From the NCBI GenBank assembly GCA_016748015.1, contig JAAOMT010000703.1, positions 618,255 to 682,254 of the forward strand: a stretch of DNA of 64,000 nt, read 5' to 3'. How positions within the stretch are numbered: the first letter of the stretch is position 1; every line of letters begins with the position of its first letter. The stretch comes from Geosiphon pyriformis uo1 (lineage: Eukaryota > Fungi > Glomeromycota). Both the position numbers and the translations under genes were made by a program. The notes below the pieces were generated by a model. That model saw only the letters and a program-made list of their open reading frames with translations, was not told the DNA's origin and did not search any database. Below are positions 3,001-58,559 of this stretch, piece by piece.

Positions 3001-4545
3001 CTCGGAACAGAGCTAGAAAACGCGTCAACACCACAAAAAATTCTAAATTTCTCAGAAATTGCCCTCTACTGTGAACTCACTTCAATAAATTGGCAACAAC
3101 CATTAGAATGCTATCAATTTACACCAGAAAAATTGGCCAAATTAAACATTGGAACAATGGATCCTGACCAACAACGACAATTAAAAGCATTAATTTTAAA
3201 ATATTCTGATATATTTTCAAGAAATGGCAAATTTGGAAGAACCAACTTGGTTCAACACCAAATCCCCACTGGAGACACCAGACCTAAAAAACAATGCACT
3301 TACCGTGTCCCACCAATGGAGCATAATTTTATCAGAAAAGAAGTCCAAAGCATGTTGGAAAAAGGAATAATACAACCATCAATGAACCCATGGTCCTCAC
3401 CAGTTGTTTTAGTAAGGAAAAAGAATGGAAAAATTAGATTTTGCGTCGACTATCGCAAACTAAACAGCAAAACAACCAAAGACTCATACCCAATACTGTA
3501 AATTGACAAAATCTTCGACGTTTTTGAAGGAGCAAAATGGTTTTCTACACTGAACTTGACCAGTGAGTACTGGCAAGTGGAAATGGACCCAAAGGACAGG
3601 CATAAAACAGCATTCACAACACAAAATGGCAATTATGAGTTCAATGTAATGCCATTTGGATTAACAAACGCTCCCGCGACATTCCAAAGACTAATGGACA
3701 TAATTTACTCTGGAATCCTGTGGCAATCCATTGTTGTCTACTTGGATGATACAAATGTTTTCTCGTCAAAATTCACAGATCATCTCCAACATTTACAACA
3801 AGTTTTTGAGAGATTGAGACACGCTGGACTTAAACTAAATCTAGAAAAATGTTTCTTTGGGAAAAATGAGCTAGCATTTTTAGGACACGTAGTTGGAAAA
3901 GATGAAATAAAACCAGATCCATCAAAAATAGACAAAGTGAAAAATTTTCCAGTACTTCGAAACGTTTTAGAAGTTAGAAGCTTTTTAGGACTCGCATCTT
4001 ACTACCACCGCTTTGTAGAAAACTTTTCAAACATCGCCAAACCCCTTAATTACCTACTATCTAAAAATGTGAAGTTTGAATGGACTAAAGCACAACAAAA
4101 AGCTTTTGAGTACCTTAGACAAAAGCTCATTGAATCACTAATAATGATTTATCCGAATTTCAACAAGAAATTCAGTTTGGCCACAGATGCCTTTGGAACT
4201 GGACTTGGAGCCATTCTGTCACAAAAAGATAATAATGGAAGAGAACGTGTAATTGCTTATGCCAGCAGAAGTCTCAGTACGGCAGAACAAAACTACGCAG
4301 CACATGAACTTGAATGCTTAGCAGTAGTCTGGAGTTGTGTTCACTTTGACACATATTTATGGTACCAACTCTTTGAGATTACAACAGATCATAGAGGTCT
4401 GGTCTGGTTAAATAACAAGAAAGTGCTAAAAAAAAAATACGCCAGATGGTCACAAATATTAGCACCATATGATTATATTATCAAATACAAAGAAGGTACC
4501 AAAAATGCTAATGCCGACTGTTTGTCAAGAATGAGACACACATAA
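1..4545 (+). pseudogene. Family A Gag-PR-Cys-rich-dUTPase-RT-RNaseH polyprotein with in-frame stops
   Basis: ORF fragments at 211, 847, 1210, 1558, 1999, 2452 and 3556 are all in one frame; motifs CYFCKCVGH, ASRSNL..GGVIDFGYTG..KIAQ, PWSSPVVLV, MPFGL, YLDD, NADCLSR*. Confidence 0.93.
2290..2715 (+). pseudogene. dut: dUTPase domain inside family A polyprotein
   Basis: All five trimeric dUTPase motifs visible (D-A-x-F-D-L, RS-N-L, GVIDxGYTG, KIAQ, RGTFGF). Confidence 0.9.
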
Positions 4546-4574
4546 AAATCACCAATCCACCCACCACAACAACA

Positions 4575-5954
4575 ATGAACAACCACCTTTACAAAAACCT
4601 CAGCCAATACTTGGAAACACTACAAATAGACAAAGAAATGCTAGTAAAAGAGCTAATTAAGCTCCAAAAATTAGCAAAACACTATTTCATCCAAAATTAC
4701 ATACTTTATTACCAGAATTGACAAAATCCAGATAATCCATTAAGAGTTATAACCACGGATGAAAAAGAAACTATCTTATTTAATATGCACTCAGATATTC
4801 ATTCAGGCCACTTTGGAAAAACAGCAACCATCCAACGTGCAACTAGCCATTACTATTGGCCAAAAATGAGTTCAGACATAATTCAATACATAAGAAATTG
4901 TGACTCATGCCAACAAAGAGGAGGAGCAAAAACAACAGAATTATTAAGACCAATAAAAGTTGGACAGCCATTTGACAGAATCAGAATTGATTTAGTTGGA
5001 CCCTTACCAATAACAACAAGAAACAACCATTATATTGCAGTAGCCATGGACTATCTCACCAAATGGCCAGAAGCTAGAGCTATTAAAACAGCTGATGCTA
5101 TTTCCGTAGCTTAATTCGTACATGAAAACTTAATTTGCCGACATGGATGTCCACAAAAATTACTATCAGATCAAGGCACACACTTCATAAACAGCACCTT
5201 AAAAAAACTTAGCCAAAAATTTGGAATCAAGCGACTACTGTCATCACCATACCACCCTCAAACAAATGGATTAGTTGAAAGATTTAATCGCACATTATGC
5301 AAATCACTGGCAAAAATTAGTAACAAACATAAAAAAGAATAGGATTTGTTCATACCAGCAGTACTACTAGCATATAGAACAGTAAAACAAGATACTACAC
5401 AATTCACACCGTTTGAACTAGTTTATGGAAGAAAAGCCACATTACCAGTTGAACTTACTATCCCAACTTATCTAAGTGACACTATCATGGAAGCAACATT
5501 TCAGGAAACACTACTTAGAAGAACATACGAATTAATGGGAACTTTAGAAAACAAAAGAAGAAAGGCAGCACAAAATATTGAACAATCACAAGAACAACAA
5601 AAAGTGAGACATAATAACCAATTACCAGATAATATAATTAGCTACAAAATTGGAGATAAAGTATTGTTGCATCGTACAAAAATGGAAAAACAGTGGAGTG
5701 GAAAATTTGATCACAAGTGGGATAGACCATTTTATATTCACAAAATACTTGGAAATGGAGCATACAAGCTAAAACTAGATGATAAAATATTAAGAAAAGC
5801 AGCACATGGTAACCGGCTGAAATTCTATTACAGTAAACCAGTAATAACAACAAAAACACCCAGAATTAGAACACAATTACCTTTAATTCTACCAAAACAA
5901 ATTCCACGAGATTTAGAACCAATAGTTTTAATTGAACATTATTCGAAAAGATAA
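4575..5954 (+). pseudogene. Family A integrase, separate ORF
   Basis: ATG at 4575, 29 nt after the RNaseH stop; HHCC (HSDIHSGH...CDSC), IDLVGP, SDQG, GLVERFNR, GPF-like module, tail DLEPIVLIE; no chromodomain. Confidence 0.92.
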
Positions 5955-7440: not shown

Positions 7441-8956
7441 ACAGCCACCAAACTTCATTCCAGATTTTCTACAGCTTTGCAGATATGTGGATATCATGTT
7501 ACAAACAATTTGCAGATGGAATAAATGTTATTTGCTCCAACCAAAACAATTGAAACAAATGAACATAGCAAACTTAGACCCACTTTAACATATGCAGCTC
7601 AAGATATTACTTAACAACTTTAATAATATTTTTGTTAGCAAAGATGAATTTGGCCATACTAATATTATCTAGCATCAGATTAAAACTGGAAATATGATGC
7701 CAATAAACAACAAGCATGCAGAGTACCACCAGCCAGCCATAAAATCATTTATCAAGAAATCAATCAGATGCTTGACAATAGGTTAATTCAGCCATTAATA
7801 AGCTCATAGTCATTACCAGTAGTACTAGTCCAAAAGAAAAATGGAAAAATCTGCTTTTGTGTAGATTACAGGAAACTGAATGGAGTAACAAAAGAAGATA
7901 ACTACCTGACTCCAAAAATCCAAAAACTGTTTGATGCTTTTGGAGGAAAGAATGGTTCTCAACTTTGAACTTAGACAGCAGTTACTGACAAGTAGCCATA
8001 AAATTGGAAGATAAAAAGAAAATGGCTTTTACAACACAAGAAGGGAATTTCAAATTTGAAGTAATGCTATTTGGTTTGATGAATGCACCAGCCATCTTTC
8101 AACAACTAATGGAAATTGTTTACACCAGACTACTATAGAAATTAGTAGTTGTTTACTTAGATAACACAAATGTGTTCTCCAAGACATTTGATGATTATTT
8201 ACATCATCTCCAACAAATGTTTGAAAGACTAAAAAAAGCCAGATTAAAATTAAATGCAACCAAGTATTTCTTTGAAAAAACTAAACTTAAGTTTTTGGGA
8301 CATTTTGTGAACAAAGGCAGTATTAAAACAAATTTAGACAAGATTAAGATAGTCAAAAACTTTTCAGTACCAACCAACTTGACAGAACTAAGAGCATTCT
8401 TGGAATTTGCTGAATACTATTATCACTTTATCAAAGACTTTTCTAAACTGGCCCAGCCATTATACCAGCTCCAATCAAAAAACATCAAGTATAAATGGAC
8501 AGAAAACCAGCAAAAAACTTTCAACATATTAAAAAGAAAACTTATTCAAGCTTTAGTGTTGATGTATTCAGATTACAGCAAATCATTTATCATCACCACT
8601 GATGCATTAGGCCAAGCATTGAGAGCAGTACTATCACAGAAAAGACTGGATGGAAGAGAACATCCAGTAGCATACACCAGCCAAAGTTTGAGTCCAGCTA
8701 AAAAAAACTATGAAACACCAATATTAGAATACTTAGCAATCTATTGGGCAGTTATGAAATGAAAAGAATACTTAAGCCAGAAGTTTGACATATATACTGA
8801 TCATAAAGAATTGACTTCAATTCAGAAGCAAGAATTTGAAGATGATTGTCATGCTCAATGGAAAATAGAACTTTCACCATTTAAATATACTGTATACTAT
8901 AAAAAAGGAAAAAAAACAGAAATGCCAATGGTTTATCATGAATGAAACAAATCTAA
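7441..8956 (+). pseudogene. Element B RT-RNaseH fragment
   Basis: CFCVDYRKLN, YLDN, ITTDA..GAVLSQ-like; ends MKQI*. Confidence 0.9.
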
Positions 8957-8986
8957 GGACACTTCAATCCAAAAATATAACAAAAG

Positions 8987-9970
8987 ATGAATATACAAAA
9001 ATATTAACAACTTCAACATTTTATAAATACTCAATGGTTTAAGGAGAAATTATCTCAAAAGGAACAAAACCATATCAAACAACAGTCCAAATATTTTATT
9101 ACTTACCAAAATATACTTTATTGGAAAAACAGAAAAAATCCAGATCAACCAACCAGAGTAATCACAAAACCAGAAAAAGAAACAATATTATTCAACATGT
9201 ACTCTGATTCAACAGCAAGACATTTTCACAAAGAAGCAATCATAAAAAGAACCAAAAATAAATACTATTGGCCATCCATGTACCCAAACATCATTCAATA
9301 CATGCAAAATTGTGATGCTTGTCAGAGAAAAGAAGAAACAAGATCCAGTGAGCCATTAAGACCAATCAAAGTAGAACAACCATTCAAGTATATTGAAATT
9401 GACTTAGTTAGACCATTAACAATAACTAACAGAGAGAACAGATACATCACAGTAGTCATGGATTATCTCACTAAATGGCCAGAAGCAAAAGCAATTCAAA
9501 GAGTAAATGCAGAATCCATTGTCAAATTCATTTATCAAGATCTGATTTGTTGACATGGATGTCCAAAAGAATTATTATTCGACCAAAAAACTCACTTTGT
9601 GAATAGAACATTAACAAAACTGAGTCAAAGATTCGAAATAAAGAGACTATTATCATTACCATATCACCCACAAACCAATGGATTAGTTGAAAGATTCAAT
9701 AGAACATTGTGCGAAACAATAGCCAAGATCAGCCAAAAAAACCAGAACAAATGAGATTTATTCATATCATCAATATTATTTGCTTATCAGACAATGAAGC
9801 AAGATACTACATAAGCAATACCATTTGAATTAGTATACAGTAGAACAGTAACATTACCAGTTGAGATAGAGATTAATACATATCTAATGGAACCAATAAC
9901 AGAAGACAATTTCCAAGAAACATTGCTAAGAAGAACATATAACTTAATGGAAATGCTAGAAAACAAATGA
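8987..9970 (+). pseudogene. Element B integrase, 5' part (3' part about 40163-40547)
   Basis: Own ATG at 8987; ORF 9197-9553 with CDAC and DYLTKWPEA; GLVERFNR. Confidence 0.88.
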
Positions 9971-22700: not shown

Positions 22701-23164
22701 TGCTTACCCAGACTTCAACAAATGATTTCAACTAGCCACTGATGCTTTACACATAGCATTTGGTGCCATCTTATCACAAGTAGATGAAAATAGGCAAGAA
22801 CAAGTCATCACTTATGCTAATAGAACACTCAAACCAACAGAACTAAAATATGGCTCAACTGAATTAGAAGCTGCCGCAGTTATTTGGGCTTTTAAACATT
22901 TTCAACAATATCTGAAGAATGGAAAAGAATTTGACATAATAATGGACAATATTGGCCTCAAATGGCTTAATAAAAAGAAAACTGAACAAAGTGTCAAACA
23001 GTTTTGATGGAATAACTTCCTAGCAGACTACAGATATATTATACACCACAAACCAAGAAAACTACATACCAATGTTGATAGCCTCTCAAGAATGAGACAA
23101 AATTAATACCAACAACAAATTCCACCACAACTTACCAACCTACCAACAAAATAACCAAACAAGA

Positions 23165-24563
23165 ATAAATCCCAGAAATTACAGCAATCTTAAAAATTAT
23201 TTGAAGACTCTTACCATGCCAGAAAACTGGTTTCCAAGTAAAAAACATTATTTACAACACCAATCAAAACAATATTTCATACACCAGAACAAAATCTATT
23301 ATAAAAATTACAGAAACCCAAACCAACCACTCAGATTAGTACAAGAGAATGAAAAAGAAACAATTTTATACAACATGTACACAGATCTATCTTCAGCACA
23401 CTTGGGAAGAGATGAAACAATTCAAAGAATTCTTAAACATTATTTTTGGCCTCACATGCAAAAAGACATTTGACAATATGTAGAATCTTGTAATAGTTGT
23501 CAAAGAAGATGAGGAACTCACCTCACAGAATCTTTAAATCCAATCAAAGTTAGACAACCTTTTGACAGAGTTGGAATTGATTTAGTCGGACCATTATCTA
23601 TCACAACCCAAAGAAATCGCTATATTGCAGTAGCAGTAGATTATCTTACCAAATGGTCTGAAGCTAGAGCCATCCAAAGAGCAGATGCAAAATCAGTAGC
23701 AAATTTCATCTATAAAGACATTATTTGTAGATATGGATGCCCAATTAAACTTTTATCTGATCAAAGAACACATTTTGTGAACAACTTGATACAAAAAATT
23801 TGTAAACAGTTCAATGTCAAAAGACTTCTATCATTACCTTATTACTCTCAAACAAATAGACTTGTAGAACGTTTCAACAGAACATTGTGTGAATCTCTAG
23901 CCAAAGTCTCAACAGACTTTAAGCAGGAATGGGATATCTTTATTCTATCAGTGTTACTAGTATACAAAATGCTAAAACAAAATACTATGAAACACATATC
24001 ATTTGATTTTACTTATGGAAAGACAGCAATATTACCAATTAATTTCATAGTGGAAACATATCTAGTACAACCAATCAATAAAGAAAACTTTCAAGAAACA
24101 CTCCAAAGAAGGGCCTACACTCTTCTTAGTACACTGGAAAGAAAAAAAAGAATAGCAGCAACTCATATTGAACATTCCCAAGCTCAACAAAAAGAAAGAC
24201 ATAACAATAAATTACCACCTATTACCAACGAATTTAAAGTTGGAAATAAAGTTTTCTTACACAGAACTAAGACTGAAAAACAATGAAATGGAAAATTTGA
24301 AAACAAATGGGATGGACCATTTTATATTTATGAAATTCTAGGCAATGGATCATACAAGTTAAGACTTGATGACAAAATACTAGCAAAAGTTGCACATGGA
24401 AACAGATTGAAACATTATCATTCCAAAAACAATCCTGAAACATTAATTCCACAAATTGGTACACATTCCCTTTTAATTAATCCTGAAGATATTTCCCAAA
24501 ATTTAGAACCAATAATTATAATAGAACAACAACCAAACTTGAACACTAAAATTATACAATAAT
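23165..24563 (+). pseudogene. C2 integrase, separate ORF (start decayed to ATA)
   Basis: HHCC region, IDLVGP, LVERFNR, WDGPF, NLEPIIIIE. Confidence 0.88.
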
Positions 24564-29300: not shown

Positions 29301-31986
29301 CACTGGAACCTATAGAACTCGACTGGAATGAAGAATCAACCATAAATTTTCTGGAACCAGAAGAATTTCATGAACACTATCAAACTTTGGCATCCACAAA
29401 AGAAGAACAAGAAGAGCATTTAGCACAGTTAAACACTTGATTATGTGACCACTGTTTGGTTTCATGTGACTTTCAATATTGTAATAAGTGTGACCTCATT
29501 TACAATCCACTACTGCACATGATCTACACAATTCCAGAGAAAGAAGAACCAATCAGCAGCTGCACATCAGAATTGGAATCAATGTTCAATTCCAATTCAA
29601 ACTTTAACAACAACAATGATAAAAACAATGGTTTCAGCTCCACTTCAAATAGCAACAAAAATTATAATGATTCAAACTCCAATTCAAATCCTGAAACATT
29701 TATTGTACTTCTTGATCTTTCAAAGAAACAGAAACTCAAATGGGTATAGTGATAATAATGAAGATATCATGCCAGAACACATATATGATACTGATGCAGG
29801 GTTTGATCTGAGATATTCAGGAAAAAAAGCCATCAAATTGGAACCAAATTCACGCATATGTATTGATCTCAAAATAGCTCTGGAAATTCCAGCAACAACC
29901 ATGGTCCAATTAGCATCTAGGAGTAGTTTAGCAAAAAAAAGAATCAACATCAGAGGAGGAATAATTGATGCGAAATACGTAGAAAATATCATTGTCATGC
30001 TACAAAATGACTCAGAAAAGACCTATATTATAGAACTAAATAAAAAGATAGCACAGGCAATATTCTTACCTCTGGTGAAAATAGCTCAGTTAGTTTCAGT
30101 AGGAAAGAGAGAAAAATTAGGTATAACAGCAACAGAAATTTGGATCAACAGGTAGAATAGATATATCAGTTAATATGGCAGAAGAAAAAATTGTTGACAA
30201 AGAAGAAATTATCTCAACTCATCAAACAATTTTCATTCCGCCATATGACCAGTATATGTTAGCCATAAAAAGAGAAGTAAGAGATCAAGCTCAATTGTTT
30301 GAAGCAAAAGCCACTATTTGTAAATTAGAAGAGATTGGACTCATTAATTTCTACATATCAGCCAAGAGCTCCAAAAACATCAAAATCCTCATATATAACA
30401 CAACGGGAAAAGTCATCAAAATACCAAAGAGAACTATCATTGAATATTTAACCACTGAAGTTGAGGATCAACCACTAAACCACATTCCAGATTTTCCACA
30501 GCTTTGTGAATATGTGGACATTACATCACAAACCATTTATGGAAGAAGTGAATGTTATCTGCTCCAACCAGAACAATTAAAACAGATAAACATGAGGAAT
30601 CTAGATCCATTTCAACAAATACAATTAAAGATATTACTCAGAAATTTTAATGACATCTTTGCCAGTGAAAATGAATTTGGCCACACCAACATCATCCAGC
30701 ATCAAATCAAGACTGGAGATGCAATGCTAATTAAACAATGAGCATACAGAGTATCACCAGCTAGCCATAAAATCATTTGTCAAGAAATCAACCAGATGCT
30801 TAACAATGGGCTAATTCAGTCATCAATGAATTCATGGTTGTCACCAGTAGTACTAGTCCATAAAAAAAATAGAAAAATCCATTTTTGTATAGACTACTGA
30901 AAACTGAATGGAGTAACTAAAGATGATAGCTATTCAACTCCAAAGATCCAAGAACTATATGATGCTTTTGGAGGAAATAAATGGTTCTCAACACTAGATT
31001 TAAATAGTAATTACTGGCAAGTAGCCATGGATCCAGCTGACAAAAAAAAAACAGTGTTCACCACAAGAGAAGAAAATTTTGAGTTTGAAGTCATACCATT
31101 TGGCTTGATGAATGCTCCAGCAACATTCCAACAGCTCATGGAAATTGTCTATATTAGATTACTATGGAAATTAGTAGTTATGTACTTGGATAACACCAAT
31201 GTGTTCTCAAAAACATTCGATGATCATTTGCATTATCTCCAACAAGTGTTTGAAAGATTGAGAAGAGCAGAATTGAAACTAAATGCAACCAAATGTTTCT
31301 TTGAAAAAACTGAATTCAAGTTTTTGGGACATGTAGTAAGCAAAGATGGAATCAAAACGGATCCAGACAAGATTAAAGTAGTTAAGAACTTTTCAGTACC
31401 AACTAACTTGACAGAACTAAGAGCATTTTTAGGTTTTACAGACTATTATTGCCATTTTATTAAAGACTTTTCAAAACTGGCTTAGCCATTTCACCATCTA
31501 TAGACCAAGAATGTAAAATATGAATGGACTGAAGCTCAACAAGAAGCATTTGACACATTAAGAAGAAAGCTTATCCAAGCTTCAGTATTGATGTATCCAG
31601 ATCACAGCAAACCATTTATAATTACCACTGATGTATCAGGTCAAGCATTGGAAGCAGTACTATCACAAAAAAGATCAGATGAAAGAGAACATCCAGTAGC
31701 TTATGCCAGTAGAAGCTTAAGTCCAGCTGAGAAGAACTATGGAACTCCAGCACTAGAACACTTAGCTATCTATTAGGCTGTCATCAAATAGAAGAAATAC
31801 TTGAGTCAAAAGTTTAAAGTATACACTGATTATAAAGAATTGACTTCAATCCAGAAACAAAAATTTGCAGATAACCACTATATCAGATGAAAAATAGAAC
31901 TTTCACTATTCAATTATACAGTACATTATAAAAAGAGAAAAGACAATTGAAATGCCGATGGACTGTTACAAATAAGACAAATCTAA
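26339..31986 (+). pseudogene. D Gag-PR-Cys-dUTPase-RT-RNaseH, 3' part
   Basis: YAPIAKLEKF, CHYC..H, LILDSGSAG, AGFDL/ASRSSL/GGIID/KIAQ, YLDN. Confidence 0.9.
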
Positions 31987-32016
31987 AAACATTTCAACCC
32001 AAAAATATAACAAAAG

Positions 32017-33393
32017 ATGAACACACAAAAATACCAACAACTTCAACATTATATAAATACTCAATTGTTCAAGGAGAAATTATCTCAAAAGGAACAAAAC
32101 AATATAAAACAACAATCAAAATATTTTATCAATTATCAAAATATACTCTACTAGAAGAACAGAAAAAATCTAGATCAACCAATTAGAGTAATCACAGAAC
32201 CAGAGAAAGAGACAATATTATTCAACATGTATTCAGATCCAACAGCAGGACATTTTTATAAAAAAGCAACTATAGAAAAAACCAGAAAAAGATATTATTG
32301 GCCATCAATATATCCAGATATTATCTAATATGTTCAAAATTATAATGCTTGTCAAAGAAGAAAAGGAACAAGATCAAGTGAATCATTAAGACCAATCAAA
32401 GTAAGACAACTATTTGATTGCATTAGAATTGACTTAGTCAGACTATTAACAATCACCAGTAAAGGCAACAGATATATTGCAGTAGCCATGAACTATCTCA
32501 CAAAATGGCCAGAAGCAAAAGCCATTCAAAGAGCAGATGCAGAATCTGTTGCCAAATTCGTCCATCAAGATTTGATATGTTGACATGGATGTCCAAAAAA
32601 ACTACTATCAGATCAAGAAACTCATTTTGTAAATAGAACATTAACAGAATTAAGTCAGAGATTTGGGATAAAAAGACCATTATCGTTACCATATCATCCA
32701 CAAACAAATGGACTAGTCAAAAAATTTAATAGAACACTATGTAAAGCAATTGCCAAAATCAGTCAAGAAAACCAAGATGAATGGGATTTGTTTATACTAT
32801 TAGTATTATTTGCTTATTGGACAATAAAACAAGATACTACACAAGCAACACTATTTGAATTGGTATATGGTAGGACAGCAACATTACCAGTTAAGAGAGA
32901 GGTCAGCACATATCCAACTGAACCAATAACAGAAGCTAATTTCCAAGAAACATTGTTGAGAAGAACATATGACCTAATGGAAACACTAGAAAACAGATGA
33001 CGAAAAGCAGCTGATAATATTCAAAAGTCTCAAGAAAAGCAAAAAAAATGACATGATAACTAATTATTAGATAAACCAGTTGAATTCAAGATTGGAGACA
33101 AAGTACTTTTACATCATACCAAAGTAGAAAAACAATGAAGTGAAAATTTTGATTCCAAATGGAATGGACCATTTTACATAGAAGAAATTCTTGAAAATAG
33201 AGCTTATAAACTAAGATAAAACAACAAAACCTTAGCCAAAGCAGCACATAGTGATTAACTCAAACCATATCACCAAATAACATTATCATCTACCAATAAT
33301 ATTTCACAATTAGGAGTACAACAAATACTAGTTCAACCAAATAAGATTTTATGAGATCTGAAACCAATTATAATCATTGAACCAAACATGTAA
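32017..33393 (+). pseudogene. D integrase, separate ORF
   Basis: ATG 30 nt after the ORF1 stop; DDE-region motifs; tail DLKPIIIIE. Confidence 0.87.
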
Positions 33394-34960: not shown

Positions 34961-37900
34961 ATGCTAAAAAGATTGCCCAAGCAATTTACCTATCCTTAAT
35001 CAACATTTCAGGTCTACAATCAGTCAACAACAGAGAACAATTGGGAAAAAGTGAAAGAGGAATGCAAGGTTTTGGTTTAATTGGATGATTTACAGTATCA
35101 GTAAACATAGCTCTTAATACACAGAATAAATCTTACCAGATTCTTCAACTTCCCCAACCAATTACCATTTTATCTTTTGGTGAACATCACGAAATTTACA
35201 CTTGCTCAAAACCCACTACTACCTAACAAATCTTTAAATTCAATGAACAAATCTGTTTAAAGCATAAAATTTTAATCCCAAATGTTTATATTCTCAAAGG
35301 AATGAAAAAATTCCAAGTTATATTCTACAATTCCAATAATTACCCCATTGTTTTATTGAACAAACTAGAGATTAGAATCATACACAGTAACATCTTTCAA
35401 GATAAAAACCCTCAAATTGTCTCTAATTTCATCGAAATTATAAGACATACACTACTTTCAAATTCAAACATCATTTTTACTACTGAAAACTATCACCTGT
35501 TAAAAGAAAAACTCTCTTGAATTAACATAAGTCCCTTAGAACTCCAACAACAAAGACAATTGAAACAACTGATAGCTGAATTTGCAGATATATTTGCAAA
35601 AGACAACAATGACCTTGGAAAAACTAATATTGTTCAACATCAAATTCACACAGAAGATGCTCTACCAAAACAACAACAAGCCTATTGAGTTCTACCTGCT
35701 AACCACCAATTTATCAGAGAAAAGGTCCAAAAAATGCTCAATAATAGATTAATTCAACCATCAAGAAGTTTTTGGGCCTCACCAGTAGTTTTTGTCAAAA
35801 AGAAAAACAGAAAAATCAGATTTTGTGTTGACTATTAACAACTAAACAGTGTCACAATTAGAGATGCCTATCCTCTACCAAGAATTGATGACATATTAGA
35901 TGCTTTAGGAAAAGCCAAGTTTTTCTCAACTTTAGACTTAGAAAGTGGATACTGATAAGTCGAAATGGATCCAAAAGATCAACTCAAAACAGCATTTACC
36001 ACTCAAGGAGAAAACTATAAGTTCAATGTTATGCTTTTTGGACTCTGCAATGCACCAGCAACATTCCAATAACTCATGGATGTTATATATAAAGAACTCT
36101 TATAGCAAATCAGTAATTGTTTATCTTGATGACACTGATGTTTACTCACCAAACTTTGAAGCCCATCTTATTCACCTGTGAGAAGCTTTTCAATGATTAC
36201 GGAAAGCAGGATTAAAGTTAAACATTAAGAAATATTACTTTGGAAAAACAAGCCTAATTTTTCTTGGACACATTGTTAGCAAAAAAAGAGTCAAACCAAA
36301 CCCTAGAACAATCAGTGCTGTCAAGAACTTTCAAACTTCCAAAAATACCATAGAGCTATGAGGATTTGTAAGATTAGCCTTTTGCTATAAAAAATTCATA
36401 AAAAGATTCTCAGAAATTGCCAAACCACTCAACTATCTTACCAACAAAAACGTGCCATATTAATGAACTGAAAAACAACAAAAAGCTTTTAAAACTCTCA
36501 AAACAAAATTGACAACAGCTCCAGTTTTTGCTTATCCAGACTTTAACAAACAGTTTCAACTAGCTACTAATGCTTTACACATAGCTTTTGGTGTCATTCT
36601 ATCACAATTAGATAAAAATGGCCAGAAACAAGTCATTGCCTATGCCAGCAGAACACTCAAGCCAACAGAACTCAAATATGGCTCAACTGAATTAAAAGCT
36701 GCCACAGTCATTTGGGCTCTTAAACATTTTCAACAATATCTGAGGAATGGAAAAGAATTTGATATCATAACTGACAATATTGGCCTTAAATAGCTCAATA
36801 AAAAGAAAACTGAACAAAGTGCCAAACAGTCTTGATGGAATAACTTTCTAGCAGACTACAAATATATTGTATACTACAAACCAGGAAAACTACACACCAA
36901 TGTTAATAGCCTCTCAAGAATAAGACAAAATTAATAATACCAACAAATTCACTACAACTTACCAACCTACTAACAAATAACAAAACAACAATAGATTTCA
37001 GAAATTACAACAATCTTAAAAACTATTTAAAGACTCTTATTATGCCAGAAAATTAGTTTTCAAGTGAAAAACATCGATTACAACACCAATTCAAACAATA
37101 TTTCATACACTATAACAAAATTTATTACAAAAATTGTAGAAATCCAAACCAGACTAATACAGAAAAATGAAAAAGAAACAATCCTATACAACATGCATAC
37201 AGATCTTTCTTTAGCATACTTAAGAAGAGATGGAACAATTCAAAGAACTTTTGAACATTATTTTTGGCCTCACATGCAAAAAGACATTCGAAAATATGTA
37301 GAATCTTGTGATAGTTGTTAAAGAAAAGAAGAAATTCATCTCACAGAACCTTTAAATCCAATCAAAGTTGGACAACCTTTTGACAGAGTTGGAATTGATT
37401 TAGTCAGACCATTATCTATCACAACCCAAGAAAATTGTTATATTGTAATAACAGTAGATTATCTCACCAAATGGCTTGAAGTTAGAGCCATTCAAAGAGC
37501 AAATGCAAAATCAGTAGCAAATTTCATCTATGAAGACATTATTTGTAGACATGGATGCTCAATTAAACTTTTATCTGATTAAAAAACACATTTTATGAAC
37601 AACTTGATACAAAAAATCTGTGAACAATTTAATGTCAAAAGACCTCTATTATTATCTTATTACCCTTAAACAAATGGACTTGTAGAATAGTTCAAAAGAA
37701 CATTGTGTGAATTTTTAGCCAAAGTCTCAACAGACTTTAAGCAGGAATGAGATATCTTTATTCCATTAGTGTTACTAGCATACAGAACACTAAAACAAAA
37801 TACTACAAAACACATACCATTTAATCTTACTTATGGAAGGACAGCAACATTACCAATTAATTTTACAGTGGAAACGTATCCAGTACAACCAATCAATGAA

Positions 37901-47698: not shown

Positions 47699-48593
47699 TG
47701 TTATCAAAAGTTTTTGGTTTTTTTTGAATGTTGTTAATGTCTTGTTTGTTATAAATTCATGTTTTCTGAAAGTAGTTAAACCTCCAATAACTGAATTTAT
47801 CTTTAAATTATCTTTTATAATTTGAACTGCTGGACTTATAAGTACAATAGCCAATTCTGTATTAATTACTTTGTGTAGTTATATTGTAGTAAATATCAAC
47901 TTTTTTTCAGAAATTGCTTATCTGAAAGCTTATTAAAAAGGCATAGTTACTTTGCTGTAAAAATCAACTCTTCTACAGAAATTTTATTTATAGACTATCC
48001 TAATAATTATAATAAGAAAAAAATAAAAAAATAAAAAAAATGTAAAAGAAATAGAATTCTGTCAAGAGAAACGTTTTCTATCCAAGTCTGGAGTTACTAG
48101 CAGATTATTGAAATTGGTAGCTAATCAATTTCAAAATGTTAGTTGTGTTGAGAAAATTCCAAGTGTAATAATTAAGGATTTGGTTTTTAAATATTTAATT
48201 TTTTTTATTGATTTTGTAAAAATATGTAAAAAATGATTTGTTTTAATTAAAATATCTAAAAATAAGATAAAATACTATAATAAGATATATTTTCTTGAAA
48301 AAAAAAGCTTTTCTTTTATACAACTTGTTGTAGTATTAGTTTTTGAACTTGCACTTTTTTCTTTGCTCTAATTTCAGTGAACTAAAGATACATTTCAGCA
48401 AACTACAAGTTATTTCTACAAACTATTAATTATTTCGGCCAATTTTTATCAATTTCGGCGAATTTTAACTATATTAAATGGTTCAGAGTATTGTGTAATT
48501 TAATCATCTTAATTTCTATGATATAAATCAGATTATTAATTGAATGATAATATTTAATAATTTGGTTAAATAATAAGTAATAATAATATATGC

Positions 48594-49580
48594 TGTTACC
48601 AGACAAAATTAGAGATATTATTTAGCATGAAATTATCGTTATAATTCTCATCATTAATTAACATATATTATTGTTTCAAATTATCACTTATTACATTAGC
48701 AAAATGTCCAAATTATCATTTAATTAATAACCCAATTTGTATATGACACAAATGTAACCTAATTGTGATGATCAATCATACAATACCCCGAACTATGTAA
48801 CATTCAAAAAGTTTGCTGAAATTTGTAGAAATTTGCCGAAATAATTGATAGTTCACCAAAATATCTAATAGTTCGTAGAAATAACTTGTAGTTTGCCGAA
48901 ATGTATCTTTAGTTCAGCGAAATTGTAGAAAATAGCAAAGTTCGAGTTCATAAAATAGTGTTACAACAAGTTGTATAAAAAAAAAGTGTTTCTCTTTGAG
49001 AAAATGTATCTTACTTCAGATTAAAAACAATTAGAATAACCCTTTACACCCAAAAGACAAATAAATATCAAATAATTTGAAAAGCCAAATTCTTAAATTA
49101 TTTCCCTTGAAATTAACCAATTCCTACTAACAGTTTGAAATTGACTAGCTACTAATTTCGGTAAACTGTTAAAGCACTTCCAGACCTGGATCCGAAATGA
49201 CTTCCATAAATTATCAGTTTTACTTTTTTTTTTACATTTCTTTTATTCTCTTTCTTTTCTTATTATAAATCATTTAGGTAGCCTACAGACAAGAATTCCT
49301 GTAGAAAAGTTGACTTTCACAGCAAAGTAACTATACATTTTTAGTGAGCTTCCAGATGAGCAATTCCTGGAAAAGAGTTGACGTTTACTACAACATAACT
49401 ATACAAAGTAACTAGCACGGAATTGGCCATTCCACTTATAAACCCAGCAGTTCAAATTATAAGAGATAATTTGAAGATAAATTTAGTTACTGGAGGTTTA
49501 ACCACATCCAGAAAACGAGAATCCACAGCAAACAGACATCAACAACATTTAAGAAAAGAGACCAAAAACCTCTGGTAACA
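48594..49580 (+). repeat. C3 5' LTR
   Basis: tgttacc...ggtaaca; TATA-like gtataaaa near 48973. Confidence 0.96.
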
Positions 49581-49624
49581 TTTGGTGCTCTCCCACAGAA
49601 ACAATACAGCAAAACAACTTCAAA

Positions 49625-52600
49625 GTGGCAACCACACCAGACACAACAACTCTAGAGTATTACCAATCAATTTACACCCACTGCAAGCAAAGATTCAACA
49701 TTCCAGACGGAATTGAAGTTGTCAAGAAATCAGTATACCAATACATTGAAAACCAAATCAACAATTATTTTTTTGGAAATTACAATATCTCAGAAGTTAG
49801 AAGCAACCTTTACAACAATTTAGCACATTATTCACAGTTGAAAACTGAAGACCTTAACAGTGAAACACTTGCCACTTACTTTCAAGAACTAAATTTTAAC
49901 ATTATCAAGTACTGTGAAGAAACATATTCAGTGCAGTTTCAATACTCTATTAATTTTAAATCAGAGACAGAAACAAGCAACAAAGGCAAACAAAAATTGA
50001 AGCAATACTCAAAAACCACCCCAAATACCCTAATACTACCAAAAACAACTGCCAAACACTTACAAACACTTGAACAAAGAACCAGTTCAAAACTTCTATT
50101 TACTATCACACCTTTTTCAGCTTTACTTGCACAAACACAAACACTTAATTTACCCTTGAATTGATTTGCAAGACCAGAAAATTTTACATCACTCAGAAGT
50201 CCCACCAGACAGCAAAAACTCCTTTAAACTAGTTCCAATCTTCTTGATTTTCTAGCTAAAAATCAAAGTGAACACTTTGAGACAACAGCAAACGAAGAAA
50301 ATGACTCTAAAATAACTGAAAAAAAATCAATAGACAGTGAAAACAAAGAAAACAAAATGACAGTATACATTGCAAAAATCCCTGAATTTAATGGAGAAGA
50401 TATTGAGACCAGTTCCCAAGAATGACTCGACCAAGTTACTAAAGCTGAAGATGTAAATGGATGGAATGTTACCAGAATGTTAAGAACAATTTCCTACTTT
50501 CTCAAAGGAACAGCAGGAGAATGTTTTGAAAACTTGGCCACTTCATTCAATGATTGAGACACTTTCAAAGCAGCCTTCTTTAAACAGTTCACCGACAATA
50601 ATATCTCCATCACCCTTCGAAATCATTTTCGCAATATCAAACAAGAACCCTCCAAATCTGTTATGACTTATATTGGGAAATTTAACAAACTTCTCAGACA
50701 AATTTGCCAACTTGAAACTAATGATTATTATTCTGATGCTCAAATCTTGGATCAATTTATCACTGGTTTAAAGGATAAACTGATTAAAAAGGTTCGCCCA
50801 CATGCACCAGAAGATTTAAACTCTGCCATTTAGCATGCAAAGAGATATGAAATGGCCATAGAAGAAGCCAATCGTACAAAACTCGTGAATTTAGCCATTG
50901 GAGAAACCAGCTCAGCAGCTGAAAAAAAAATTGACCAACTTACAAAGAAAGTTGAAAACTATTTCACCAACCAACAACAACAGCAACCCCAAAGATATCA
51001 ACCACCCCAAAGACAGAATCAAAACAACTTCACATCACTTTCTAATAACCAGCCTCAGAGTTGCCATTACTGTGAAATTTCTGGCCACTGGAAAAAAGAT
51101 TGCAGAAAGCTACAATGAAACCAACAAAATAAGAGTAATCAATATTACTCTTTACCACAGTAATTTTATTATCAACTACCACCACCAGCTTACTATTCAC
51201 CAAGACCCCAATATCAAAGTAACTATTATCAGCCTGCCCCACAGCCAATTCAACAGCAATACCAACAACTACCCACACAACATTATCAAGTGCCTGCTCG
51301 AAGATTAATCCTGTAAAATCAATTTACACCACAAAACCAATACCAAGTAAACAACAATAGAATCAATTCAAACAACCAATTAGTTTCCCAAAATCCAGCT
51401 CAGCCAAGACCCACTTATTATCATACTCAACCTAGCTATTTTACAATACCTGAAAAACAGGATTTTCACCATACTGCACTCTCAGAAGGTAGAGTTGCAG
51501 CATGACAACAAAACTCTTCCTATATTCTTACCACAATCTCACCAGCCAGAATTGCTGAAAACACCAATCTTTCAGACATATTTTCTTTTAAGTTTGAAGC
51601 AAATGAGTCACCATTTCTGCTCAGCAATGTGGCCGCCAACAAACAAAAAGCAATCACTGCTATATACACTGAAGCAAAAGTCGAAGGAAAGGCAATTCGC
51701 TTGATCCTAGACAGTGGATCTGCTGAAAGCATCATTACCTACCAGTTAATGCAACAGTTAAAGAGAAATGTTGACTGACCAGCTCAAACAGTAATTGTTA
51801 CTGCCAATGGCATCAAAAAGACTCCAGTAGGAGAAATTGACAATTTTCTGTTTACTCTTGATAGAATCACCATTTCAGTCAAAGTTCTTGTAATAGATGC
51901 GCCCCAGTACTAAGCTCTCATCGGAAATGATTGGCTTCAAAAAGCCAATGCTAATCTGAATTGGGAGATACAAGAGTTAACAATCTCCTACCAAGGACAA
52001 CATGCCCGGGTACCTGCCACTTGTAGTACATTCAACAAATATTCCAAAAAAGCCCCGGCTTTTGAATTTGAACTGGAAGAAGAACAGCCCATCATTGAAA
52101 CATTTGTGGCACTTGGATCAACCTCCAATTGGGCCGATGAAACTAAACAACAGTACTTTTCAACAAATGATTTTCTTGAAACAGAAGAACCAGTAACAAC
52201 TGGATGGAATGTCTCCTATTCAAAACCAGAACCACGAAAACAACGCCCCTACATTCCACTCAAATGCAAAGACTGCCACAAGAAACTCTCTTCAATGGAA
52301 GCCTGCATTTCACCTGAAAAAGAATATGAAAATCATACTTGTTATTACTGCAAGGCTTGTCATAAAGAATGATAGGGCCATCTAATAAAAAGAAGCAGAA
52401 AATGGGATAACACCCCTTGTTTGACTTGTGGAGATATGCTACTAGAAGAATGCAATTGGATTGATTTAGCAATGAAAGGAGGAGTCTGCGATCAGACCTG
52501 CCAATATGCTTTATCAATTTCAGAAAAAGTAAAAAGAGGAACACTCTTTGATGCAGTATACAACAGTGCTCTCAACAAACTGTACTATTATCCTCATGAT

Positions 52601-55257
52601 GCCGAAATGATTTTCGACCTAGCAATGGCTTTAATTAACAGAGCCACTCAAGAAAATGTTCGTCAAATGAAAGAATCAGAATACATTGCATACACTTTTG
52701 AAATCGCTGGATACAACTACAAAGATGAAATAGAAGTATATTATCAAATTGCCAGTCACACTTATCTGACCAAAGAAGCTCAAGCTCAATGGCTAGAGCA
52801 AATAAACGTTAAATTGTGTAAAGAATGCATAATGCCCTGCGATAAGCAATGGTGCTCTGAATGCTATGCTCTTAGCATTTTTCTGTCCAGTGAAAATGAT
52901 GAAAGCGAAATTGAATTTGGAGAACCTGAAGCAACAGAAGAAATTGAAACAACACCCATCTATTTTATTAAAAGTCAGTCTGCCTTACAACTCAAATACT
53001 TTAACAACAATAGACAAGGAATAAAACCTGAAAAAGCACATGAAATTGATGCTGGATATGACCTAAGATATCCAGACAAGAATACTCTTGTTCTCAAACC
53101 CAAATCTCTCACAAAAATCAACCTCAAAATTGCACTCAAAATCTCGCCAGGAGCAATGGTTCAAATCGCCTCCCGGTCCTCTCTGGCAAGCAAAGGAATC
53201 AATGTCAGAAGAGGAATAATCGATTCTGGATATACGGGAGACATTACAGTAATGCTTCAAAATGAAACTGACAAACCATTCAAGATCGACCATGCTGAAA
53301 AAATTGTCCAAGCTATTTACCTACCCCTAATCAACATTTCGAGTTTGCAACTAGTCAATCAAAGAGAACAATTAAGAAAAAACAATAGAAGAACCCAAGA
53401 TTTTGGTTCAACTGGACGATTCACAGTTTTAGTTAATATAGCTCTTAACACACAGAATGAATCCTACCAGATTTTCAGATTTCCACAACCAATTACCATC
53501 TCACCCTTTAGAGAACATCCAGAAATTTACACCTGTCCAAAGCCAACAACCACACAACAAATTTTTGAGCCCAATGAACAAATTTGCTTGGAACATAATA
53601 TTTTGATCCCAAACATTTATATTCCAGAAGGAACAAAAAAAGTCTGAGTTACTTTTTACAATACCAACAATTACCCTATAGTTCTATTAAATAACTTAGA
53701 AATTGGAGTCATTTACAGTAACATTTTTCAACAAGAACTACTCTAGACAGTTCCCAATTTTTCGGAAATTATTAGACATTCACTACCAAAAATCAACCCA
53801 AATCCTAGCTCTGAAAACTACCATGTTGTCATAGAAAAACTATTTTGAATCAACATAGGACAACTTGAACCACAACAACAAAACCAGCTCAAAGAGCTAA
53901 TTGTAGAATTTGCCAATATCTTTGCCAAAAACAACAATAACTTAGAAAGAACCAATTTGGTCCAACACAAAATTTACACAGGAGATGCCAAACCAAGAAG
54001 ACAACAAGCATATCGAGTTGCTCCAGAAAGCCACCAATTTATTCATGAAAAAGTACAACGAATGCTTAACAATGAGCTTATCCAACTCTTTATGAGTCCT
54101 TGGGCTTTACCTGTAGTACTAGTTAAAAAAAAAATGGAAAGATATAATTTTGTGTTGACTATTAACAACTCAACAGTATTACAATTGGAGATGCCTACCC
54201 CCTTCCCTAAATTGATGACATGTTAGATGCCCTTGGAAAATCTAAATACTTTTCAACACTAGATTTAGAAAGCAGTTACTGGCAAGTTGCTATAGATCCC
54301 AAAGATCGCCCCAAAACAGCATTAACCACTTAAGGTGGATATTATGAGTTCAATGTAATGCCCTTCAGATTATGCAATGCACCAGCAACGTTTCAGAGAT
54401 TAATGGATGTTGTATATCAAAGGCTTCTTTGGAAGTCAGTAGTCGTTTATCTTGATGATACTGATGTTTATTCTTCATTGTTTAAATTATACTTAAAACA
54501 CCTACGAGAAGTTTTTCAATAATTATGAAAAGCAGGACTAAAACTCAACATCGAAAAATGCTACTTTGGAAAAACAAGCTTGGCCTTTCTTGGTCATATT
54601 GTTAGTAAAGATGGAATCAAACCGGACCCTGGAAAAATTAGCACTGTTAAAAACTTTAAAACTCCTCAAAACACTACAGAACTAAGAGGATTTATAGAGT
54701 TAGCCTCCTATTATTGGAAGTTTATCAAAGGATTTTCAGAAATTGCAAAACCTCTCAACCAGCTTACCACCAAAAATGTCGAATACAAATGGACTGCTGA
54801 ATGCCAAAATGTATTTGAAATCCTCAAAGAAAAACTAATGACAGCTCCAATTCTCGCCTACTCAGATTTCAGCAACTGATTCCGATTAACAACAGATGCC
54901 TCTTATATTGCCTTTGGTGTCATCTTATCACAATTAGATAACAACAAAAATGAGCGAGTAATCACTTATGCTAGCAGAACATTAAAACCAGTCAAGAAAA
55001 ACTATTCTGCCACAGAACTAGAAACAGCAGCCATAATCTGAGTTCTACACCACTTCAACCTTTATCTTAGGCCTAAAGAATTCGATATTATTACTGATAA
55101 TATTGGACTCAAATGGCTTCAGAACAAAAATACTCAGCTAAACGCAAAACAAACCTAATGGACAAGATTTCTAGCAAACTATCGATACATAGTACATCAC
55201 AAACCAGGAAAACTCCACATCAATGTTGATTGTCTCTCCAAAATAAGACAAGATTAG
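49625..55257 (+). pseudogene. C3 Gag-CCHC-PR-Cys-dUTPase-RT-RNaseH
   Basis: Fragments at 49625, 50852, 52106, 52421 and 53957 share one frame; CHYCEISGHWKKDC, LILDSGSA, AGYDL/ASRSSL/IIDSGYTGDI/FGSTG, YLDD; one frameshift at the A-run near 54130. Confidence 0.94.
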
Positions 55258-55308
55258 AAAACACAAAAACCAACACTCAACTTAACCAACCAAAACAGCC
55301 AACAAACA

Positions 55309-56694
55309 ATGAATTCGAAAAACTACAACAATCTCAAACAATATTTGGAAATATTAACAATCCCAACAGATTGGTCTCCAGATAAAAAACATCGACTACA
55401 ACAACAAGCCAAACAATATTTTCTACACAACAACATTATTTATCATCGAAATTTCAAAAACCCAGACAAACCACTCAGATTAATACAAGAACAGGAAAAA
55501 GAGACTATATTATACAACATACACTCAGATCTTTTATTAGCACACTTTGGAAAAAACAGCACCATCCAAAGAACACTAGAATACTACTTTTGGCCTCGAA
55601 TGAGAAAAAACATTCATGAATATGTCGAATCTTATGATAGTTGTCAAAGAAGAGGAGGAACACGCCCTACTGAATCATTAAATCCAATCAAAGTTGGACA
55701 ACCCTTCGACTGAGTTGATATTAATTTAGTCGGACCACTATCTATCACCACTTAAGGAAACCGTTATATTGCAGTAGCTGTAGACTATCTTATTAAATGG
55801 CCCAAAGCCAGAGCCATTCAATGAGCAGATGCGAAATTAGTAGCAAATTTCATCTATGAAAACATCATTTGTAGACATAGATGTCCAATTGAACTTTTAT
55901 CTGATCAGAGAACACACTTTGTAAACAACCTGATATAAGAAATTTGCGAATGATTCAATGTCAAAAGACCTCTGTCTTTGCCCTATTATCCACAAACAAA
56001 CAGACTTGTAGAATGTTTTAACAGAACATTGTGTGAGTTATTAGCCAAAGTCTCAACCGATTTTGAGCAAGAATGAGATATCTTTATTCTATCAGTGTTA
56101 CTAGCATATAGAACACTAAAACAAGATACCACAAAACACATATCATTTGATTTAACTTATGGAAGGACAGCAACATTACCAATTAGTTTTACAGTGGAAA
56201 CATACCCAACACAACCAATCGATAAAAACAATTTCCAGAAAACACTACAACGAAGAGCTTACACTCTGCTTAGTACATTGGAAGGAAAATGATGAATAGC
56301 AGCAACTTATATTAAACATTCTCAAGCTCAACAAAAAAAAAGACATGACAACAAATTACCACCTATTACCAATGAATTTAAAGTTGGAAATAAAGTTCTC
56401 TTACACAGAACTAAAGCTGAAAAACAATGGAGTAGAAAATTTGAAAATAAATGGGATGGACCATTCTTTATTCATGAAATTCTAGACAATGGATCATATA
56501 AGCTAAGATTTGATGACAAAATCCTAGCAAAAGTTGCATATGGAGATCATTTGAAACACTATAATTCCAGAAACAATTCTGAACCATTAATTCCACAAAT
56601 TGGCACACATACCCCTTTAATCAATCCCGAAGATATTCCCTGGAATTTAGAACCAATAGTTGTTATTGAACAATTTCCCAACTTAAACACTTAA
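55309..56694 (+). pseudogene. C3 integrase, separate ORF
   Basis: ATG 51 nt after TAG; MNSKNYNNLKQYL.., HSD...H, WDGPF, NLEPIVVIE. Confidence 0.92.
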
Positions 56695-56816: not shown

Positions 56817-57533
56817 ATGACTATTCCTCAAAACATTTAACAATTATCCCAAAAACTAATGTTAGCTTTAAAAACAATATCCGAATTATCTATTACTGTT
56901 ACTGAAAACCACATTAATTATATCCAAACAAAAGTAGTCACAAATTTAGCCCCAAATTCACGAAAATATCACCCATATAAGAAGAACACAAGAAGTTATT
57001 CTGGAATTCACCTGCCAGAACTTTTAAAGCTTGCTTTAAGAGAAAACTTAATGCTCACTCCTATTAGTATTCCACCAAATGCTACTATTTAACAAAAACT
57101 TCAACTGTGTTTTAATAAAGAAAACTATGACTATACTCCAATATATAGATATTTCTACATTGGAAAAACACTTCATGAACAAAAATGGGAGCTTACAGTA
57201 GCAAACCTCACAAAAGAAGCTATTCGGAAACAACTCCACAATAAATTCAAGACAACAACTAGACCTACAAACAGTCATTATAAATTAAGAGCTGCTCTTA
57301 GACTTTATGACCTATTTCACTGTAAAAACGTTCTACAAAACCCAATTTTACAACCTTTGAAGATTCAATACATTGAAAAGCTTACAAAACTGAAATTTCA
57401 ACAATTTTTAGACCAAATCTCTTCAATAATTTTGGATTATTATCTGGAAATTACAGACAGTACTTGGACTTCGACAGAGCTCAGTCTTGAGGAGGAGGTT
57501 ATGTTACCAAACAAAATTAGAGATATTATTTAG
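56817..57533 (+). pseudogene. C3 ORF3, unknown function
   Basis: Homologous to C1/C2 ORF3; ends inside the LTR. Confidence 0.8.
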
Positions 57534-58489
57534 CATGAAATTATTGTTATAATTCCCATCATTAATTAACATATATTATTGTTTCAAATTATCACTTATT
57601 ACATTAGCAAAATGTTCGAAATTATCATTTAATTAATAACCCAATTTGTATATAACACAAATGTAACCTAATTGCAATGATCAATCATGCAATACCCCGA
57701 ACTATGTAACATTCAAAAAGTTTGCCAAAATTTGTAGAAATTTGCCAAAATAATTGATAGTTCACTGAAATATTTAATAGTTCACAGAAATAACTTGTAG
57801 TTTGCTGAAATATATCTTTAGTTCAGCAAAATTGTAGAAAATAGCAAAGTTCGAGTTTATAGAATAGTATTACAACAAGTTGTATAAAAGAAAAACTTCT
57901 CTCTTTGAGAAAATGTATCTTACTTCAGATTAAAAACAATTAGAATAACCCTTTACACCCAAAAGACAAATAAATATCAAATAATTTGAAAAGCCAAATT
58001 CTTAAATTATTTCCCTTGAAATTAACCAATTCCTACTAACAGTTTGAAATTGACTAGCTACCAATTTCGGTAAACTGTTAAAGCACTTCCAAACCTGGAT
58101 CTGAAACAATTTCTATAAATCATCAGTTTTACTTTTTCTTTTACATTTCTTTTATTCTCTTTCTTTTCTTATTATAAATCATTTGGGTAGCTTACAGACG
58201 AGAATTCCTGTAGAAGAGTTGACTTTCACAGCAAAGTAACTATACATTTTTAGTAAGCTTCTAAATAAGCAATTCCTGGGAAAGAGTTGACATTTACTAC
58301 AACGTAACTATACAAAGTAACTGGCATGGAATTGGCCATTCCACTTATAAGCCCAACAGTTCAAATTATAGGAGATAATTTGAAGATAAATTCAGTTACT
58401 GAAGGTTCAACCACATTCAGAAAACAGGAATCCACAGCAAACAGACATCAACAACATTTAAGAAAAGAGACCAAAAACCTCCAGTAACA
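57502..58489 (+). repeat. C3 3' LTR
   Basis: Matches the 5' LTR. Confidence 0.96.
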
Positions 58490-58559
58490 ATGCTAATTAA
58501 TAATAGAAATTATGAAGATAATTTTATGCTAATTAATAGCTAAAATTCTACTAATAACA

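Follow-up and report, generated by a model that had tools for sequence, protein, structure and literature searches.

A Gypsy LTR retrotransposon lineage with a free-standing integrase cistron in Geosiphon pyriformis, a cousin of the Ginger1 transposons

Introduction

The kinship between Gypsy elements and the DNA transposon Ginger1 was published in 2010, with Ginger1 regarded as perhaps derived from Gypsy and the reverse left open; Ginger1 fell near Athila/Tat with no significant support, no sister lineage was supported, and the chain of events was called unclear (Bao et al., 2010, PMC2836005). The question is raised again by a 64-kb window (the whole stretch of DNA analysed here) of the Geosiphon pyriformis genome, in which an LTR element carries its integrase (IN) as a cistron of its own: is this a Ginger, an intermediate between Gypsy and Ginger, or a Gypsy element in which pol has been divided? 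We consider it probable that it is a dead Gypsy copy whose IN is a separate gene, likely translated by a restart on the same RNA, and that it belongs to a fungal lineage grouping with Ginger1 and Athila/Tat.

Within the literature covered, Repbase and most subscription papers lying outside that scope, no Gypsy lineage in which IN forms a separate cistron was found, nor was an IN-only Gypsy cistron met with in the accessible parts of PMC2864245, PMC6839031, PMC5751038, PMC8647823, PMC3248453, PMC5006619, PMC11943222, PMC12863088 and PMC12440569. An LTR lineage which lies in the clade of Ginger1 and has its own IN start codon removes one step, and the Gypsy-to-Ginger1 question becomes testable with existing genomes. 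It would also suggest that a Gypsy integrase can function without having been cleaved out of Pol, and its translation and packaging then call for an explanation.

A complete but decayed Gypsy element

Six related elements are nested in the window. The focal one (48594-58489) is a complete but dead Gypsy LTR retrotransposon, decayed, of 9.9 kb, in which gag-PR-dUTPase-RT-RH, a stop, IN and an accessory ORF (ORF-X) follow one another between direct LTRs. Its features are:

48590..48593, plus strand: 5' target site duplication (TSD) ATGC, matching the 3' copy
48594..49580, plus strand: 5' LTR, 987 bp, TGTTAC...GTAACA, 93.8% identical to the 3' LTR
49583..49594, plus strand: primer binding site (PBS)-like TGGTGCTCTCCC, just past the 5' LTR; tRNA not identified
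49553..51310, plus strand: gag region, broken, with a long N-terminal part (ORF 49553-50164)
about 50489-50773, plus strand: gag capsid domain (Pfam Retrotrans_gag, E 6e-11)
about 51059-51109, plus strand: gag CCHC knuckle (Pfam zf-CCHC, weak)
51640..52000, plus strand: aspartic protease (PR), broken, LILDSG with the Asp codon at 51710, as read from the sequence
53027..53416, plus strand: dUTPase, between protease and RT (Pfam dUTPase, E 2.5e-19)
54130..55257, plus strand: RT and RNase H (RH), ending ...LSKIRQD-TAG, 9 internal stops
55258..55308, plus strand: intercistronic spacer, 51 nt, A/C-rich with one G
55309..56694, plus strand: free integrase cistron, 461 aa, 8 internal stops
56817..57509, plus strand: ORF-X, beyond IN, 2 internal stops
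57487..57501, plus strand: polypurine tract (PPT), preceding the 3' LTR
57502..58489, plus strand: 3' LTR, TGTTAC...GTAACA
58490..58493, plus strand: 3' TSD ATGC, matching the 5' copy

The features by which a Gypsy element is recognised are present, namely direct LTRs with TG...CA ends, a PBS, a PPT, a TSD and the order gag-PR-RT-RH-IN; the one that is absent, IN as part of the Pol polyprotein, is usual without being strictly defining. The TGGTGCTCTCCC motif also lies downstream of three other 5' LTRs, and a dUTPase has been reported for some Gypsy elements of basidiomycetes and truffles. Among named proteins the closest is itself from Geosiphon pyriformis (75%, for a part of the query), other named matches being from Rhizophagus and Entrophospora. 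Between protease and dUTPase lies a Cys-rich stretch (52270-52870) with several CxxC pairs and without a Pfam match.

The sequence-only reading of the window had described TGTTAC...GTAACA ends and 4-bp TSDs, and these were borne out by the focal LTR pair, where the TSD (ATGC/ATGC) cannot be extended to 5 bp and the inverted part of the ends is limited to the 6-bp TGTTAC/GTAACA, with no terminal inverted repeats (TIRs). An LTR-like insertion at 18975-19767 is also flanked by ATGC/ATGC, and ATGC adjoins the 3' LTR at 34960, so that a target preference is suggested; two other elements of the window have mismatched flanks, atga/atgg and atga/acgg.

IN starts at ATG 55309 with MNSKNYNNLKQYLEILTIPTDWSPDKKHRLQQQAKQYFLHNNIIY and comprises a YPYY-type motif (aa 1-45), Integrase_H2C2 (aa 60-115, E 2e-15), an rve/DDE core and a GPF module. 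The sequence-only reading had singled out 55309..55560, which corresponds to the first 84 codons of this IN. The motif positions (Y12, P19, Y37/F38, Y45; consensus Y/F-P-Y/F-Y/F) align with Ginger1-type proteins. Pfam recognised H2C2 and then rve only, with no chromodomain and no Ulp1 or OTU domain. The H2C2, DDE and GPY/F residues are partly mutated in the focal copy and intact in relatives; the first Cys of the finger has become Tyr and the first catalytic Asp has become Asn, the latter as read by eye from the alignment.

The integrase is a separate cistron across the lineage

TAG 55255-55257 closes the RT-RNase H frame, and the ATG of IN follows 51 nt downstream; the spacer (55258..55308) was searched for a predicted fold and for an upstream ATG, and neither was found. 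In a dead copy such a stop could be one more decay mutation, given the further internal stops of RT-RH (9) and IN (8), 17 in all, and a spacer that is in frame, yet this reading is hardly credible. All six copies in the window, which represent several families, stop at the same position past RNase H and restart after 29-58 nt, four with ATG and two with ATA. The five junctions other than the focal one are:

4543..4577, plus strand: split junction of another family, TAA, 29 nt, ATG
8954..8989, plus strand: split junction, TAA, 30 nt, ATG
23104..23167, plus strand: split junction, TAA, 58 nt, ATA at the start position
31984..32019, plus strand: split junction, TAA, 30 nt, ATG
36932..36993, plus strand: split junction, TAA, 56 nt, ATA at the start position

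Intact relatives are split as well, in other frames, and L010 and L019, with their long open ORFs and terminal direct repeats, refute decay by retaining the split. The recurrence of the stop in the window copies, taken with the intact relatives, therefore shows that the focal stop is not a product of chance or decay. In metagenomes, every locus of the close group that showed the end of RNase H as well as the start of IN was split (16/16); these were drawn from 80 loci, those without an RNase H end being left uncounted, as were six frameshifted or degenerate ones (L055, L060, L061, L065, L066 and L070). A stop thus precedes IN at all 22 junctions, with spacers of -11 to 727 nt (110 nt or less in 18), and two further loci, L092 and L097, appear split outside this count. 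Aligned homologous IN proteins (n=47) are 417-453 aa long and nearly all start at one column.

The proposal that the integrase forms its own cistron was accordingly real, with a stop and a separate start at each of the 22 junctions, and the free IN is a lineage-wide variant of Gypsy. The split is not universal, as a search for longer proteins recovered one fused RT-RH-IN (P0404, on a single 3.6-kb contig) within the core free-IN clade, a candidate re-fusion. Four NCBI gene models (P0400, P0401, P0402, P0406) also join RH to IN, each dropping a different stretch, and we read these joins as predicted introns spanning the stop, differing between models in the way of predictor artefacts. Free integrases of about 420 aa are prone to such mis-annotation, and surveys which call Ginger from the rve domain, as the accessible part of Muszewska (2017) indicates, could conceivably count them as DNA transposons.

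In some loci (L007:2-4438, L019:3361-6702, L092:2-940) the RNase H frame runs on for 270-580 codons past RNase H, an extension without a Pfam match in L007 and L019. At L015 an ORF resembling Mrr_cat_2 restriction endonucleases (L015:509-1234) overlaps the IN start (ATGA); no RT lies within 1.2 kb upstream of it and no TIRs were found there.

How the integrase may be translated

A fused protein made by readthrough or frameshifting was ruled out, since the IN frame relative to pol is variable (frames 0/1/2 at 6/5/11 of the junctions), so that no single readthrough or frameshift rule applies, and spacer lengths vary too. Four of the 22 junctions are stop-start overlaps such as TAATG and ATGA. 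The window spacers are poor in G (6/254 nt, against 12.7% in the flanking coding DNA), and A stands at -3 in 19 of 29 IN starts, compared with 66 of 178 internal ATGs. The overlaps, the short spacers, the poverty in G and the A at -3 fit re-initiation after the pol stop, and on these sequence features IN would be made free by ribosomes re-initiating past that stop across a short, G-poor spacer. Long spacers of 163-727 nt occur at four of the 22 junctions, and in three of these 7-12 ATGs intervene, so that simple re-initiation is no explanation there.

In one subclade, a conserved structured RNA of about 45 nt lies just 5' of the IN ATG (e.g., L007:4455-4506) and might be used for starting IN. 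It was recorded at L004, L005, L006, L007, L013, L021, L032, L042, L046 and L093, two of which (L046 and L093) were further cases found by a search with the RNA model, both before IN starts, the only setting in which it was met; the model had no match within the window. Eight of 13 predicted pairs vary on both sides among eight sequences, a figure that relatedness can inflate, and Rfam, compared with 14 loci, had nothing at E<=1. A second upstream motif, TTTAGA.TTTCAACGA, is common to L035:420-494 and L054:141-215, and four rows of it (L035, L054, L026, L019) gave no consensus fold.

Could IN come instead from a spliced or internally promoted subgenomic RNA, as for env or foamy-virus pol? The long spacers, the covarying structure ahead of the AUG in one subclade and the gene models that bridge the stop from RH to IN would all be accommodated. 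However, no splice acceptor is conserved ahead of IN (YAG occurs in the last 40 nt at only 5 of the 22 junctions), the stop-start overlaps indicate coupling, and the gene-model joins each fall at a different place, as predictor artefacts would; a subgenomic RNA is therefore unlikely. Under the preferred reading of re-initiation, IN would then be packaged without release by the protease. The element probably moved by ordinary reverse transcription and integration with a 4-bp TSD, ATGC being preferred.

Phylogenetic position of the free integrase

The IN tree was built from 71 of 397 usable IN regions, picked from a 210-row FastTree, with the N-terminal motif excluded and without named rows for 412/mdg1, Ginger2, Ylt1, SN_1006 or Gypsy-1_RO. 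Ginger1-type rows, so labelled from their Ulp1/OTU/PHD domains together with two fish proteins named GIN-like and not from Repbase elements, form one clade (100/99), which does not contain the focal IN. Their sister group (96/85, on a short branch of 0.059) consists of the free integrases, six Athila/Tat-type rows and seven others, six of which are fused; jointly the two are supported at 99/99, and FastTree runs of 210 and 109 rows gave the same superclade. Within the sister group, the core free-IN clade that includes the focal element (95/89) is distinct from the Athila/Tat rows, which form clades of their own in both the IN tree (99/95) and the RT tree (100/99). Outside the 99/99 clade lie other Gypsy elements, the IN-before-RT rows (L074, L080) and four chromodomain-bearing outgroup rows.

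The phylogeny called for by the sequence-only reading thus places the focal IN in one well-supported clade with Ginger1, but in a clade that also includes Athila/Tat, and in the best tree Ginger1 does not have the free integrases alone as its sister. A constraint that unites the 17 core free integrases with Ginger1 was 6.5 lnL worse and not rejected at 0.05 (p-AU 0.284). A place among the fungal chromoviruses had been named as the finding that would speak against a link to Ginger; the best IN and RT trees separate the two, core identity to chromoviruses is 22%, and Ty3 scores 173 bits on the free-IN profile, against 457 for the Ulp1-bearing IN-only protein P0152, but forcing them together (34.9 lnL worse, p-AU 0.062) gave no rejection at 0.05 either. 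The same reading counted congruence of IN with RT against the link. The RT tree does have the same shallow groups as the IN tree, with the focal element away from chromoviruses and the deep branches unsupported, but such agreement is expected whether or not Ginger1 derived from an element of this kind; it therefore refutes nothing and does not discriminate.

Mean core identity of the focal IN is 42% to the near fused rows, 37% to Ginger1, 36% to Athila/Tat and 35% to other Gypsy elements. Ulp1-bearing IN-only proteins, which have the Ginger1 architecture as given by Bao et al. (2010), are among the best 150 matches to the free-IN profile (P0193, at 394 bits, besides P0152), the reverse search, started from a Ginger1-type protein of an animal, brought up OTU/Ulp1/PHD proteins interleaved with fungal free integrases, and the Atlas search listed Mucoromycota clusters first and GIN1 clusters soon after.

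Comparison with Ginger and other elements

The focal element is not a Ginger, as it has LTRs and an RT, lacks TIRs and Ulp1/OTU domains, has an ATGC TSD and lies outside the Ginger1-type clade. TGT termini, 4-bp TSDs and the YPYY motif had been offered as the link to Ginger, and these proved not to be specific to it: TGTNR ends are common to Ginger and Gypsy, and YPYY also occurs in Athila/Tat, Cer1, DGLT-A1 and Rhizopus Gypsy-1-I_RO (Bao et al., 2010, PMC2836005). YPYY-like stretches are present in many fused pols as well. What survives of the link is the 99/99 clade and a match in start position (see below), whilst core identity does not set Ginger1 apart from other Gypsy elements (37% against 35%).

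With Ginger1 and GIN1/GIN2 the element shares a free-standing integrase with YPYY, H2C2, DDE and GPY/F, and with Ginger1 in particular the TGTNR ends and a TSD of 4 bp. It differs in having LTRs, PBS, PPT, gag and RT, where Ginger1 has TIRs of 40-270 bp, and in having no Ulp1/OTU/PHD tail. In Ginger1 the TSD reads CCGG or CCGT/ACGG (Bao et al., 2010, PMC2836005), whereas both clean pairs here are ATGC; one mismatched flank in the window reads acgg. Ginger2/Tdd, compared by description, has TIRs and an RTATAY target and is without YPYY and GPY/F, both of which the focal element has.

Athila/Tat, Cer1, Gypsy-1-I_RO and DGLT-A1 are likewise LTR retrotransposons with YPYY; Athila/Tat rows fall in the same 96/85 group, but their IN is fused to RT-RH in the rows checked, whereas here it is free. 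Ylt1 and SN_1006, which could be compared by description from the accessible part of Novikova (2010, PMC2864245), are also fungal and non-chromoviral and are described there with one or two ORFs; in the accessible supplementary tree of Bao et al. (2010, PMC2836005) the Ylt1 label adjoins Ginger1 in label order. Fungal chromoviruses of the Ty3 and Tf1 type share the domain order PR-RT-RH-IN with the focal element, which lacks their chromodomain and does not have IN fused. In Gmr1-like elements IN lies upstream of RT, whereas here it lies downstream.

No TIR pair was found around IN of the free clade when 14 loci, of which 13 are free-IN and one is Ginger1-type, were scanned for repeats, or among the matches listed by a TGT...ACA scan of seven loci and of new loci with an IN score >120; as most contigs scanned were 1-10 kb, this absence is a weak result. 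L139, whose IN best matches Ginger1-type rows, is flanked by long inverted repeats, which provides a partial check on that label.

Start position shared with Ginger1 and the origin of the free cistron

Starts were scored by taking the Tyr of the motif's YL as an anchor and looking for a Met 10-12 residues upstream. Such a Met was found in 71 of 73 free integrases, 13 of 27 Ginger1-type proteins and 2 of 60 fused ones. Eight Ginger1-type proteins have it at exactly 11, most of them with M-[DE]-xxx-Y as in the free integrases; nine more lack a residue at the anchor, and 14 of the 27 start elsewhere. Relatives inherit a start together, so the eight matches amount to little more than a single event, and the sites at which a start can arise are few at the edge of a domain; with shared descent this makes the match suggestive only. 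The shared start position, a feature of the sequences, nevertheless appears to be the best new link between free IN and Ginger1.

The sequence-only reading saw the element as the expected intermediate between Gypsy and Ginger. A free cistron with a Ginger1-like start agrees with this, but exclusive sisterhood with Ginger1 was not recovered, and, inside the YPYY group already known, the lineage is a close cousin of Ginger1 but no proven intermediate, ancestor or descendant. As a cousin, it may keep the gene boundary that a step from Gypsy to Ginger1 would need, without polarity, and it is a likely, though unproven, model of how a retrotransposon enzyme becomes a DNA transposon. The free or fused state changes three times on the tree, with no direction assignable.

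We give a nearly even chance to convergence, in which pol was split in fungi independently of Ginger1 and the likeness reflects the known YPYY kinship only. The best tree, in which free integrases share a group with Athila/Tat and fused lineages whilst Ginger1 stands outside it, the YPYY-like stretches of fused pols and the difference in TSD all favour it, whilst the same start position would be required twice, possibly with several splits in the sister group.

Alternatively, and more tentatively, a free cistron may have been ancestral to the whole YPYY group, from which Ginger1 arose by loss of gag-pol and gain of inverted ends, whilst Athila/Tat and the other fused members re-fused. This would account for the eight Ginger1-type proteins with Met at 11, for the free-start proteins in several deep branches of the sister group (including Paraglomus proteins) and, with P0404 as a precedent, for re-fusion; the AU test also tolerates an exclusive clade of free IN and Ginger1. 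It is weakened by the lack of polarity in the three state changes, by the few start sites that a domain edge allows, by the 14 Ginger1-type proteins that start elsewhere and the near-single event behind the eight matches, by the lack of DNA context for most deep free rows and by the failure to find a TIR-bounded member on the short contigs scanned. It is possible, if speculative, that the Glomeromycota keep a living polycistronic Gypsy lineage whose IN gene and the transposase gene of Ginger1 are homologous down to the start codon, split pol being ancestral to Ginger1, GIN1 and Athila/Tat and IN in one subclade being driven by an undescribed structured RNA. If true, this split-pol ancestry would be the missing step from an LTR retrotransposon to a cut-and-paste transposon.

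The reverse, in which a Ginger1-like transposase gene was taken up, start codon and all, by an element with an RT, leaving the split pol as a relic of the capture, seems improbable. Ginger1-type rows are sister to the Gypsy YPYY group and not nested within it, and the direction was left open in 2010 (PMC2836005); yet the YPYY group and Ginger1 together are nested among fused Gypsy integrases in the chromovirus-rooted tree, and the shallow agreement of RT and IN trees speaks against a recent swap.

ORF-X and further observations

ORF-X belongs to a family of conserved accessory ORFs that follow IN throughout the clade (at L001:2284-2712, L005:1915-2364 and nine further loci), predicted to be all-helical with a confident model (pLDDT 89.5); the focal ORF-X was assigned to it by alignment alone (21% to the first row). 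ORF-X had no Pfam match, Atlas matches shared few features with it, Foldseek against PDB and viral libraries gave no match at E<=0.001, and the best VIA Z was 5.0. A role as a re-initiation factor was considered and found no support. A search of the viral contig collection recovered no close relative of the element.

Eukaryotic retroelement or Ginger-like DNA was also met with in bacterial-titled records (L092, L093, L094, L097, L139), including a Glomeribacter assembly, and is probably host contamination. Within the window, an element at 9971-40162 is inserted in the IN of another (split 9970/40163) and has a second element within it. Three assembly gaps (N runs at 6040-6281, 14128-14910 and 19305-19509) fall in the window, two of them inside LTRs, and one TSD is hidden. 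Minus-strand fragments of related elements lie at 58563-59783 (a PR-dUTPase piece) and 47699-48584 (a truncated LTR).
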